UHGV virus genome: UHGV-1488538
Direction: 5' to 3' (one strand)
Source: a virus
Length of the DNA stretch: 39,106 bases
The notes beneath the pieces are model-generated. The model was not told where the DNA came from. It saw nothing but the letters and a program-made list of their open reading frames with translations, and searched no databases. The translations under genes and the position numbers were made by a program. Shown here piece by piece: positions 6,550 through 8,910 of the stretch (position 1 is the stretch's first letter; each line of letters opens with the position of its first letter).

Positions 6550-6565
6550 CTATCCTTGATTTTTG

Positions 6566-6580
6566 TTACCTTATGGGTGA
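6566..6580. promoter_or_regulatory. Operator TTACC-TTATG-GGTGA (OR-like site 3, within spacer of putative cro promoter)
   Basis: 1 mismatch; sits between candidate -35 TTGATT (6556-6561) and -10 GAATAT (6579-6584). Confidence 0.55.
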
Positions 6581-6616
6581 ATATTTATTATCTGAAATAA
6601 ATATCAGGCAATAGCT

Positions 6617-6917: not shown

Positions 6918-6997
6918 TAAAAAACCAAATCTGGTTGATCTTTTTTTTGTGTCAGCACAAAATAACCGTAATCCCAATACTAATAACAGGGCTTACC

Positions 6998-7198
6998 ATG
7001 GAAATCATTACACGTATTGATGCCGCAAAGCGCGGACTTAAACGCTACTACACCGGAAAACCATGTAAGCACGGACATGACAGTGAACGCTGGGTTTACA
7101 ACGGACACTGTGTTGAGTGCACCATGGAGTCAAACCGTCGCATCAGGGCAGAGATTAAGCAGATCATGATTAATTCCTCCCCACAACACTCAAGCTGA
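6998..7198 (+). CDS. Small Cys/His-rich protein (possible zinc-binding regulator, cII position)
   Basis: 66 aa from internal ATG; CKHGH...CVEC pattern; track ORF begins at 6935. Confidence 0.45.
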   Translation: MEIITRIDAAKRGLKRYYTGKPCKHGHDSERWVYNGHCVECTMESNRRIRAEIKQIMINSSPQHSS

Positions 7199-7213: not shown

Positions 7214-8029
7214 ATGAGCAGACATGCAACAGATTGGGCCTGGGAGACAGATCCAGGTAGCTCATCATTAAAGCTCATACTGCTCTCGATGGCTGACAGA
7301 GCCGATGAATATAACCTCTGCTACCCCAGCATAGAACGCCTCGTTAAAGACACTTGCCTGAATAAAAAAACCGTGCAGGCCGGGCTTATATCGCTCATGA
7401 AAATGGGGCTTATTTCAGATACCGGAGAGAGAAAGGGAGCGACAAAAAGAGTGCGGGTTTTCTCTCTTAATATAACCAAAAACGGGAACATTAAAGGCAA
7501 CCGGGAGGGGGGCAATGAACCCGAAAACGGGAATATACCCGAAAACGGGAATATACCCAAAAACGGGATGTTGAATGATCCCAAAAACGGGATGTTGAAT
7601 GATCCCAAAAACGGGATCCAGAACCAGTCATATAACCAGTCATTTAACCAAGAGAGGGAGAGCAGGACAAAAAGCGGGGATTCTGTGCCTCATGACCCCG
7701 GAGCAAACAACGCCGTGATGAATAACTTTGTTCCTCCTGGTGGGCCAGGGCAATTAGGCAAATTTGTCATGCATGAACAATGGCAGCCATCAGATGACTT
7801 TCTTCGGAAAAGCTCATTGCAGGGGATCTACCTGGACAGTCTGCCAACGGCACAGGAACTTGCAGAGTTCAGAATTTACTGGATGGCTGAGGGTAAGGCA
7901 TACCATCAGGCACAGTGGGAGCAGAAGCTGGCAAGGCGGCTGCAGATTAGCAGACAGAAGCAATCAACATTACCTGATAACAACGTTCCGCACTGGAACA
8001 GCCCTGAAGCATGGGAGGATTTCTTGTGA
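7214..8029 (+). CDS. Replication initiation protein (O-like, N-terminal HTH, internal repeat linker)
   Basis: 271 aa; N-terminal HTH-like region; internal peptide repeats NGNIPENGNIPKNGMLNDPKNGMLNDPKNG encoded by DNA iterons; immediately upstream of P-like gene. Confidence 0.7.
   Translation: MSRHATDWAWETDPGSSSLKLILLSMADRADEYNLCYPSIERLVKDTCLNKKTVQAGLISLMKMGLISDTGERKGATKRVRVFSLNITKNGNIKGNREGGNEPENGNIPENGNIPKNGMLNDPKNGMLNDPKNGIQNQSYNQSFNQERESRTKSGDSVPHDPGANNAVMNNFVPPGGPGQLGKFVMHEQWQPSDDFLRKSSLQGIYLDSLPTAQELAEFRIYWMAEGKAYHQAQWEQKLARRLQISRQKQSTLPDNNVPHWNSPEAWEDFL
7476..7617. repeat. Iteron array (putative origin of replication) inside O-like gene: 6 copies of CC(C/G)AAAACGGGA core at 18/24-bp spacing
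   Basis: Direct tandem repeats visible at 7476, 7520, 7538, 7556, 7580, 7604; analogous to lambda ori within O. Confidence 0.6.
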
Positions 8030-8811
8030 ACAACGTTTTTACCGCGATACAAAACCGTGACGGAGAAGCCCTTTCTCGCATGTCAGGTTATGAGCATCAG
8101 TACGTCAACAATGACAATGTGGTGAACATGTCAGCAGAGAGGCTTGTTGATGCCCTTTTTAAACAGCTGAAACAACTGTTTCCGGCGGCAGTGGTAACCA
8201 ACCTGAAGACGCCAGAGCAGGAAGTTGCTGCAAAACAGCAGTGGATTGCTGCGTTTGCCGAAGGGGGGATCCGAACCCGTGAACAGGTTTCTGCTGGTAT
8301 GCGCCACGCCCGCGCCAGTGAATCTCCGTTCTGGCCGTCTCCAGGGCAATTTATCAAGTGGTGCAAAGACAGCAAGATGGTTCTTGGCGTCACCATTGAC
8401 GATGTGATGGCGGAGTTTCACCGGTACAGCAAGGAAAAAAGTTTATATCCTGGTGGTCCCGAAAGATTCCCGTGGCGACATCCGGTTATGTACTGGATCG
8501 TATGTGATACCCGCCGTGCAATGTATCAGCGCCAGCTTAGCGAGATTGAGGTTGAGAAACACGCACGCAGGCTGCTCGATGATTGGGCGAAAAAGGTGGC
8601 TTCCGGACAGCAGATACCCGATCCGGTGATCAGCATACAGGCAAAGCCAGAGCCCATGAGTACGCCTCCGGACACAGGGAGAGACGTTTACCATCCACCA
8701 GGGCGAAGTTTCGGGTGCATGCCTAACGCCGCCACCCTTGGGGGAATAACACCGGCGCAGTGGCTGATGGAGGAATACAGGCGGGGAAAGGCGGCAGGAT
8801 TTATCAAGTAA
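8011..8811 (+). CDS. Replication protein P-like helicase loader
   Basis: Segments QQWIAAFAEGGIRTREQVSAGMRHARASESPFWPSPGQFIKWC and SLYPGGPERFPW match lambda P as I recall it; probable true start GTG at 8026 with GGGAGGA RBS (GTGA overlap with O-like stop). Confidence 0.85.
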   Translation: MGGFLVNNVFTAIQNRDGEALSRMSGYEHQYVNNDNVVNMSAERLVDALFKQLKQLFPAAVVTNLKTPEQEVAAKQQWIAAFAEGGIRTREQVSAGMRHARASESPFWPSPGQFIKWCKDSKMVLGVTIDDVMAEFHRYSKEKSLYPGGPERFPWRHPVMYWIVCDTRRAMYQRQLSEIEVEKHARRLLDDWAKKVASGQQIPDPVISIQAKPEPMSTPPDTGRDVYHPPGRSFGCMPNAATLGGITPAQWLMEEYRRGKAAGFIK

Positions 8812-8836: not shown

Positions 8837-8848
8837 ACGCCTCGACAA

Positions 8849-8863
8849 TTACCTGTTAGGTAA
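8849..8863. promoter_or_regulatory. Operator TTACC-TGTTA-GGTAA
   Basis: Perfect palindrome about 20 bp upstream of candidate -35 TTGATT (8883-8888). Confidence 0.65.
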
Positions 8864-8910
8864 TAAAATATTCTAAAATCTATTGATTTCGTGTCTTATG
8901 TGGTTTTTAA

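Follow-up and report, generated by a model that had tools for sequence, protein, structure and literature searches.

The 39,106-nucleotide genome of the virus UHGV-1488538 (the whole of this stretch is referred to below as the window) carries on its + strand, at positions 7214-8029, a gene for a replication initiator of 271 amino acids, recognised by its matches in the Pfam, PHROG and PDB collections. The middle of this gene contains six direct repeats (iterons) and, directly to their right, a short tandem of 12-mers. An earlier note, made from the letters of the window, had proposed that the repeats mark the probable origin of replication. Comparison with homologous loci, in which the positions of the repeats, the covariation of their arms, their reading frames and a naturally chimeric initiator of the Edwardsiella phage GF-2 were considered, argues for that proposal. 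In our judgement the array very likely serves a phiV10/epsilon15-like temperate phage as its replication origin, situated within the linker-coding part of the phage's own initiator gene.

The initiator gene and its repeats

The predicted initiator consists of a winged-helix domain of the HTH_36 type (approximately amino acids 1-88), a linker encoded by the iterons (approximately 87-150) and a C-terminal domain resembling DnaT (approximately 180-265, nucleotides 7751-8008). The N-terminal domain matched PF13730 (HTH_36) over amino acids 18-67 with an E-value of 1.8e-10 (40.9 bits, the gathering cut-off being 25), and the C-terminal domain matched PF17948 (DnaT C-domain) over amino acids 184-252 with an E-value of 1.2e-15. 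The same C-terminal part (180-265) matched the DnaT C-domain chains 4ou6, 6aep and 9zbt of the PDB with E-values of about 1e-20. Residues 1-269, nearly the whole protein, matched PHROG 1032, 'replication initiation protein', at 2.5e-108. A single-sequence AlphaFold2 model of the initiator was unusable (mean predicted local distance difference test score, 38).

When both strands of the window were searched for CCNAAAACGGGA with up to one mismatch allowed, six matches were obtained, all of them exact and all on the + strand. Chance expectation for the core was 0.49 ± 0.67 copies, and six copies were reached in none of 100 shuffled sequences; no other copy was present on either strand of the window at this threshold. 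The same six iterons were recovered by a second repeat search. The count of six direct repeats inside the initiator gene, as given in the earlier note, was thus confirmed, with the correction that the variable base of the core is A or G rather than C or G: the core reads CC(A/G)AAAACGGGA. Its copies lie between 7476 and 7616 and start at 7476, 7521, 7539, 7557, 7581 and 7605, which corresponds to core-to-core spacings of 45, 18, 18, 24 and 24 bp. The spacing of 18 or 24 bp that had been described is therefore correct for the last four intervals and wrong for the first, and iteron 1 stands apart from the others. Tandem Repeats Finder divided the region into an 18-bp unit (2.8 copies, 7519-7568, 96% match), a 24-bp unit (2.6 copies, 7556-7617, 100% match) and a 12-bp unit (2.4 copies, 7622-7650, 94% match).

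The complete iteron is an 18-bp dyad in which two 6-bp arms flank an A-rich spacer of 6 bp. Its best form is the terminal iteron 6 (7601-7618, GATCCC-AAAAAC-GGGATC), a perfect 6+6+6 dyad which stands in fixed register with the 12-mers downstream of it. Iteron 5 (7577-7594, GATCCC-AAAAAC-GGGATG) pairs at five of the six arm positions and is part of a 24-bp unit that includes a conserved TTGAAT spacer, while iteron 4 (7553-7570, ATACCC-AAAAAC-GGGATG) pairs at three and iteron 3 (7535-7552, ATACCC-GAAAAC-GGGAAT) at five. Iteron 2 (7517-7534, GAACCC-GAAAAC-GGGAAT) includes the 14-mer CCCGAAAACGGGAA, which is also present in the iteron of phage phi80. The isolated iteron 1 (7472-7489, ATAACC-AAAAAC-GGGAAC), 45 bp ahead of iteron 2, pairs at three of six positions. 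All six are on the + strand.

Next to iteron 6, also on the + strand, are the tandem 12-mers AGAACCAGTCAT, ATAACCAGTCAT and TTAACCAAGAGA (7620-7655), the third of which is degenerate. They were delimited by Tandem Repeats Finder, by exact copies and by conservation in the family. What had been described as a duplicated CCAGTCAT-TAACC element is a genuine tandem 12-mer and belongs to a 12/13-mer repeat found throughout the family; it extends beyond position 7617, where the earlier note had ended it. Exact copies of AACCAGTCAT occur in the window at 7622 and 7634 only, and with one mismatch allowed seven were counted in the window against 2.75 expected, which is not above chance. Since the window-wide count is near chance, the significance of the 12-mers comes from the relatives and not from the window. 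The 12-mers are followed by a purine-rich tract, AAGAGAGGGAGAGCAGGACAAAAAGCGGGGA (7650-7681, + strand), in the place that an A-rich or AT-rich tract occupies in many relatives and in phage lambda. Purines make up 73% of the interval 7650-7690, but with a GC content of 54% the stretch is not AT-rich.

As the earlier note had stated, the iterons and the 12-mers are all in frame with the open reading frame 7214-8029 and encode the linker; the translation contains NEPENGNIPENGNIPKNGMLNDPKNGMLNDPKNGIQNQSYNQSFNQ. Two antisense open reading frames run across the repeats on the - strand (7321-7608, 95 amino acids, and 7491-7643, 50 amino acids); it is almost certain that they arise as mere by-products of the repeated sequence.

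Conservation and covariation of the cassette

Variation among nearly identical initiators was studied in 80 relatives from IMG/VR, in phages phiV10 and BP9, and in the closest proteins of a large protein database. The array was found to vary by whole units only: the 18-bp unit was present in one or two extra copies, the 24-bp unit in one to seven copies, and phiV10 had one additional 12-mer. Near-identical prophages carried between 5 and 11 iterons, and the corresponding protein lengths ranged from 263 (BP9, 792-nucleotide gene) to 311 amino acids. The initiators of E. coli prophages (P0001-P0016) were 271, 279, 287, 291, 292 or 311 amino acids long and differed solely by the number of units. 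The 24-bp unit, of which BP9 has one fewer, encodes MLNDPKNG. The three right-hand iterons were almost invariant, and the interval between iterons 1 and 2 was the most polymorphic part of the array.

More distant homologues, with N-terminal domains 42-70% identical, were found in Gamma-, Beta- and Alphaproteobacteria and in Desulfovibrio. The comparison included the phages PPompW, GF-2, Vibrio Her, Acinetobacter Ab105-2phi and AP22 together with 27 bacterial genome loci, which came from a scan with a three-sequence alignment. All of the approximately 25 intact homologous genes contained 3-10 dyad repeats directly past the N-domain, at about nucleotides 260-540 of the gene. In 40 of the 105 repeat spacings of up to 40 nucleotides the distance was not a multiple of three (17 nucleotides in 21 cases, 22 in eight, 23 in five; 25 also occurred), so that across lineages the motif is read in several frames. 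Because the same DNA motif is elsewhere translated in different frames, the repeats cannot be a purely peptide-level feature. Among 137 copies, some 90% retained the inner CC..GG pairs, and the spacer remained A-rich, while the outer arms changed jointly, giving the variants ATCCC/GGGAT, ACCC/GGGT, CCCCC/GGGGG, GTACC/GGTAC, GTCGG/CCGAC (locus L110) and GTGCC/GGCAC (locus L111).

Covariation of the arms was tested with the last iteron of each lineage, which was picked by its position and not by its symmetry and was read in the fixed 6+6+6 register; for comparison, the right arms were shuffled among lineages. In these terminal iterons 73.9% of the cells paired, compared with 59.2 ± 2.7% after shuffling (reached in 0 of 500 shuffles), the covariation score was 0.327 versus 0.114 (0 of 500), and double changes were seen at all six positions. 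Controls with a slid register gave 19-48% pairing. Modal iterons subjected to a between-lineage shuffle showed 3.92 paired positions versus 3.18 ± 0.17 (1 of 10,000 shuffles); kinship among the lineages makes all these shuffle statistics overstate independence, which weakens the case for an origin to that extent, and they are to be taken as indicative and not as exact probabilities. A palindrome statistic with a free axis (nine pairs, best axis of the consensus) was no better for the iterons than for random 32-mers, and is uninformative because the 6-nucleotide spacer is asymmetric and the axis free. The most divergent arms (L110, L111 and L113) coincided with N-domains that lack the wing motif DTGERKG, and this correspondence, seen in three cases, is suggestive of co-change between protein and DNA. 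Covarying pairs of protein and iteron of this kind would form a natural series for studying the specificity of winged-helix proteins.

Conservation in the aligned lineages extended to the DNA on the right of the array. The 12-mers of the window are the local form of a (A/T)GAAYC-W-R-Y-CA repeat of 12 or 13 nucleotides that is present throughout the family. In 20 of 21 aligned lineages the terminal iteron was followed by CAGAAYC..YCA, with AAYC placed exactly 15 nucleotides from the start of the spacer. Columns C+12 and A+15 were identical in all 21 lineages, and A+16, C+18, C+22 and A+23 in 20 of them. Several columns exceed the iteron arms in conservation, and the 12/13-mers proved to be the most conserved part of the cassette. 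Two to four copies occur, spaced by 12 (17 cases) or 13 nucleotides (16 cases). With the 13-nucleotide spacing successive copies fall into two codon phases, so that one is translated as NQS and its neighbour as EPV. Taking both strands together, the motif was 14 times as frequent at nucleotides 250-650 of the genes as elsewhere in the loci (4.7 versus 0.34 per kb). The 12/13-mers were kept with every type of C-domain (DnaT-like, lambda-O-like or other) and with every type of partner gene (P-type loader or DnaB-type helicase). In many relatives they are followed by an A-rich tract of 78-85% AT.

Two side observations belong here. The TTGAAT spacer between the iterons that lie 24 bp apart (7571-7576 and 7595-7600 in the window) was kept in most lineages, even in those with differing arms, and the A at position -9 in this region was present in all 21. 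In a Granulosicoccaceae metagenome-assembled genome (L104, 1501-1950), in which the 12/13-mers have spacings of 14 and 13 nucleotides, stop codons end the initiator reading frame just past the array; this initiator is a pseudogene or contains a sequencing error in the repeats.

A natural chimera was found in the Edwardsiella phage GF-2. Its initiator gene (L004, 1501-2343) starts with an HTH_36 N-domain, continues with iterons of its own (TCCCAAAATTGGGA) and 12/13-mers, then with the right-arm palindrome of the lambda origin (TCCGAGAATTCTGACGAATCCTCAGAC), and ends in a C-terminal half that is 62% identical to residues 156-299 of lambda O. The N-domain and iteron cassette evidently fill the slot of the lambda N-domain and iterons in an otherwise lambda-type origin and initiator. 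Taking into account that about 25 divergent homologues share the position of the repeats, that the arms covary, that the frames vary and that the cassette is exchanged as in GF-2, selection acts on the repeat DNA itself, as a protein-binding dyad, and not on the peptide.

Proposed function of the array

For the array as an origin, we infer binding of the initiator, unwinding, helicase loading and a part for the 12-mers. Dimers of the HTH_36 N-domain would bind the six 18-bp dyads and form a complex resembling the 'O-some' of lambda. This complex would open or mark the adjoining 12-mers, which are held in rigid register with the last iteron, and the purine-rich tract behind them. The DnaT-like C-domain, aided by the product of the neighbouring lambda-P-type loader gene, would then recruit the DnaB helicase of the host. 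Unwinding elements of plasmids and chromosomes carry 13-mers, and by analogy we infer that the 12/13-mers may serve as an opening or loading element.

Several findings weigh against the identification of the array as an origin, besides the kinship among lineages mentioned above. The left-hand iterons are imperfect dyads, with three to five of the six arm pairs, and in the window alone all repeats share one frame, so that selection on the DNA and on the peptide is inseparable there. No AT-rich tract like that of lambda was found beside the array: the best 40-mer after it was 62% AT, as compared with a fraction of 0.80 in lambda and P22, and the nearest-neighbour duplex stability of the 12-mer region had a z-score of only +1.4. 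The least stable 40-mers nearby were intergenic (8845-8890 and 6565-6605), and the minimum within the gene was at iteron 1 (7457-7496). The record of phiV10 has no origin annotated at this locus. A literature search, outside which lay the original genome papers of epsilon15 and phiV10, where a prior mention is possible, returned neither an experiment on nor an account of the origin for phiV10, for epsilon15 or for any further phage with an HTH_36-type initiator.

It could be argued that the repeats are a low-complexity coding repeat, prone to slippage, which sets the length of a flexible linker, and that replication starts at another place, such as an AT-rich stretch between genes. Such an explanation would account for the fact that every unit is in frame in the window and in close relatives, for a copy number that varies between 5 and 11 without apparent consequence, and for the intergenic position of the least stable duplexes. 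It does not fit the other lineages, where the motif is spaced by 17, 22, 23 or 25 nucleotides and is read in different frames, nor the covariation of the dyad arms, the match between the motif and the binding sites of phi80 gp15, or the uniqueness of the core in the window; we regard it as quite unlikely. Binding of the initiator to the repeats could, on the other hand, serve mainly regulation (titration, autoregulation or handcuffing), with strand opening at a separate site. The iterons of plasmids have dual roles which include these three, and the lack of a strong unwinding element beside the array and the highly variable copy number would agree with a regulatory function. Against this, the array is part of a single conserved cassette of rigid register that also comprises the 12/13-mers and, in a good many relatives, the A-rich tract. 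In GF-2 this cassette stands in for the iteron half of a lambda-type origin, directly beside the lambda right arm, and no second array was found in the window. A mainly regulatory role is therefore unlikely.

The repeats might also act in RNA, if hairpins between neighbouring units attenuated or terminated transcription or controlled translation of the initiator. Arms of neighbouring units can indeed pair as hairpins, and on the - strand these are followed by T-runs in the manner of terminators (7607-7588 and 7583-7564). Terminator-like sites numbered four, compared with 2.9 in shuffled sequences, which is not above chance, and a scan of the region for promoters and terminators likewise gave nothing above chance. 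Moreover, the hairpins of the sense strand precede A-runs and not U-runs, the conserved centre of symmetry is the spacer and not a stem between units, and the arms covary within units, all of which makes a role in RNA highly improbable.

Other signals that might mark an origin were not informative or were absent. Matches to DnaA boxes were not enriched in the window and none was near the array, and the right-arm palindrome of lambda (GAGAATTCTGRCGAATCCTC) had no match in the window with up to three mismatches. The cumulative GC-skew has its minimum at 6-7 kb, beside the array; it is not diagnostic because gene orientation changes from leftward to rightward at the same place.

Iteron origins that lie within the initiator genes of phages are a known and ordinary arrangement, and the initiator family described here is widespread and unstudied. 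The one part that may be new is the conserved 12/13-mer. It is possible, and we put this forward tentatively, that the 12/13-mers are an undescribed sequence-specific origin element of the large family of HTH_36-type initiators, which replaces the AT-rich tract of lambda and is recognised, single- or double-stranded, by a conserved part of the initiator. If so, the family would represent a distinct class of origins and not a copy of the lambda design. The function of the element can be tested directly.

Relation to known origins and identity of the phage

The array is placed like the origin of lambda. In both, the initiator gene contains dyad direct repeats (ATCCCTC-AAAAC-GAGGGAT, four copies, in lambda) where it codes for the linker, the top strand on their right is rich in A or purines, and a P-type helicase-loader gene follows immediately. 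In contrast to lambda, the N-domain belongs to PF13730 and not to PF04492, and the C-domain resembles DnaT and not lambda O. The dyads also differ, being 6+6+6 in the window and 7+5+7 in lambda; the window has six (its relatives have 5-11), none of them out of frame; the 80% AT tract and the right-arm palindrome are missing and tandem 12-mers are present in addition. The lambda-like placement in an O-like gene that had been claimed therefore stands as far as the linker position is concerned, which is the same as in lambda, phi80 and P22, but the protein lies outside PF04492 and the AT-rich tract is lacking.

The closest likeness in the iterons themselves was found in phi80, where the iteron TTCCC-GAAAAC-GGGAA corresponds to the annotated gp15 binding sites (L117, 8664-8740) and has the same order of arm, 6-nucleotide spacer and arm. 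The 14-mer it contains (CCCGAAAACGGGAA) is shared with iterons 2 and 3 of the window, the sites are in the initiator gene, and the P-like gene 14 is next to it. Unlike the initiator of the window, gp15 belongs to PF04492, and the two proteins show no pairwise similarity; phi80 has four iterons spaced by 20-21 bp, and past the last of them there are no GAAYC 12/13-mers but an AT-rich tract and a lambda-type palindrome. In P22 a rep_origin is annotated inside gene 18, with the dyad iterons GGTAAA-ACA-TTTACC. A single GAATCAGTCA occurs right after the last iteron (L089, approximately 1912-1925); it resembles the 12/13-mers of the HTH_36 family, whose codon phase (NQS) it shares, and repeated A-rich 13-mers follow. 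P22 differs in its PF04492 initiator, in the iteron sequence and in having, where the window has a P-type loader, a DnaB-type helicase (gene 12) as the partner.

The iteron plasmids RK2, F, R6K and pPS10 have arrays of 17-22-bp initiator sites beside short tandem 12/13-mers, and the plasmid 13-mers are bound by the initiator as single strands. The window shares with them the array of initiator sites next to short tandem 12/13-mers; it differs in having no match to Rep_3 and no DnaA boxes near the array, and in the location of the origin within a coding sequence. Similarity to E. coli DnaT is confined to the C-terminal 85 residues of the initiator, which match the single-stranded-DNA-binding domain of DnaT, while the N-terminal two thirds (HTH_36 and iteron-encoded linker) are unrelated. 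The database names 'primosomal protein I' and 'DnaT' cover one domain of the protein only, and 'origin-binding initiator with a DnaT-like C-domain' would be a more suitable annotation.

In the Pfam search PF04492 (Phage_rep_O) was matched by lambda O, P22 gp18 and phi80 gp15 and not by the initiator of the window, for which PF13730 and PF17948 were the only matches. Pairwise BLASTP of the initiator against these three proteins gave nothing (the E-value with phi80 gp15 was 18). By profile-profile comparison (hhalign), 21 HTH_36 N-domains matched the lambda O/P22 gp18/phi80 gp15 group over the helix-turn-helix and wing with a probability of 81% (E-value 1.2e-5, 45 columns). This match, and the near-identical iteron of phi80, suggest without proving it that the HTH_36 N-domain and the lambda O-type domain have a remote common ancestor and are not products of convergence. 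The feature of the window would thus work like the origins of lambda and phi80, yet by sequence its protein lies outside the lambda O family: a second initiator family, seemingly unrelated by sequence, shares the iteron design of these phages.

The genes around the initiator fit the lambdoid pattern. On its right is a lambda-P-type helicase-loader gene (8011-8811, + strand; PF06992 9.8e-57, PHROG 109 3.2e-92), the probable start of which is a GTG codon at 8026 that overlaps the stop codon of the initiator as GTGA, in the way annotated for phiV10. Upstream there are a divergent repressor-like gene and small cro/cII-like genes, and by its gene content the locus is a lambdoid-style early-right replication module. 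The initiator gene was 96-99.5% identical to those of phiV10, PAS61, EC.W1-9 and other Uetakevirus (epsilon15-like) phages, which identifies the window, at the level of sequence, as a phiV10/epsilon15-like (Uetakevirus) temperate phage. The gene was found in 424 of 5,426 complete E. coli genomes. A probable origin is thereby located for the phiV10/epsilon15 group; phiV10 has been employed for reporter and delivery purposes in E. coli O157, and knowledge of its origin helps in engineering it.

Some minor observations were made in the course of these comparisons. Directly 5' of the initiator gene, the small open reading frame 6935-7198 (+ strand) encodes a Cys/His-rich protein (CKHGH, CVEC) which belongs to PHROG 1081, of unknown function, has no Pfam match, and is kept in phiV10 (gp42) and in epsilon15. 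In CP025713.1 (YDC107_2) the match to the initiator is in three pieces, and the features annotated under it include a 'putative membrane protein'. The initiator gene is also present on the unannotated 114.9-kb record PH444. In PP488543.1 (phage BP9, a 138-kb 'Vequintavirus') approximately 6 kb of a phiV10-like early region, with recombination genes, repressor, initiator and P-like gene, is located at the end of the record (131937-138295) and looks like an assembly chimera or contamination.

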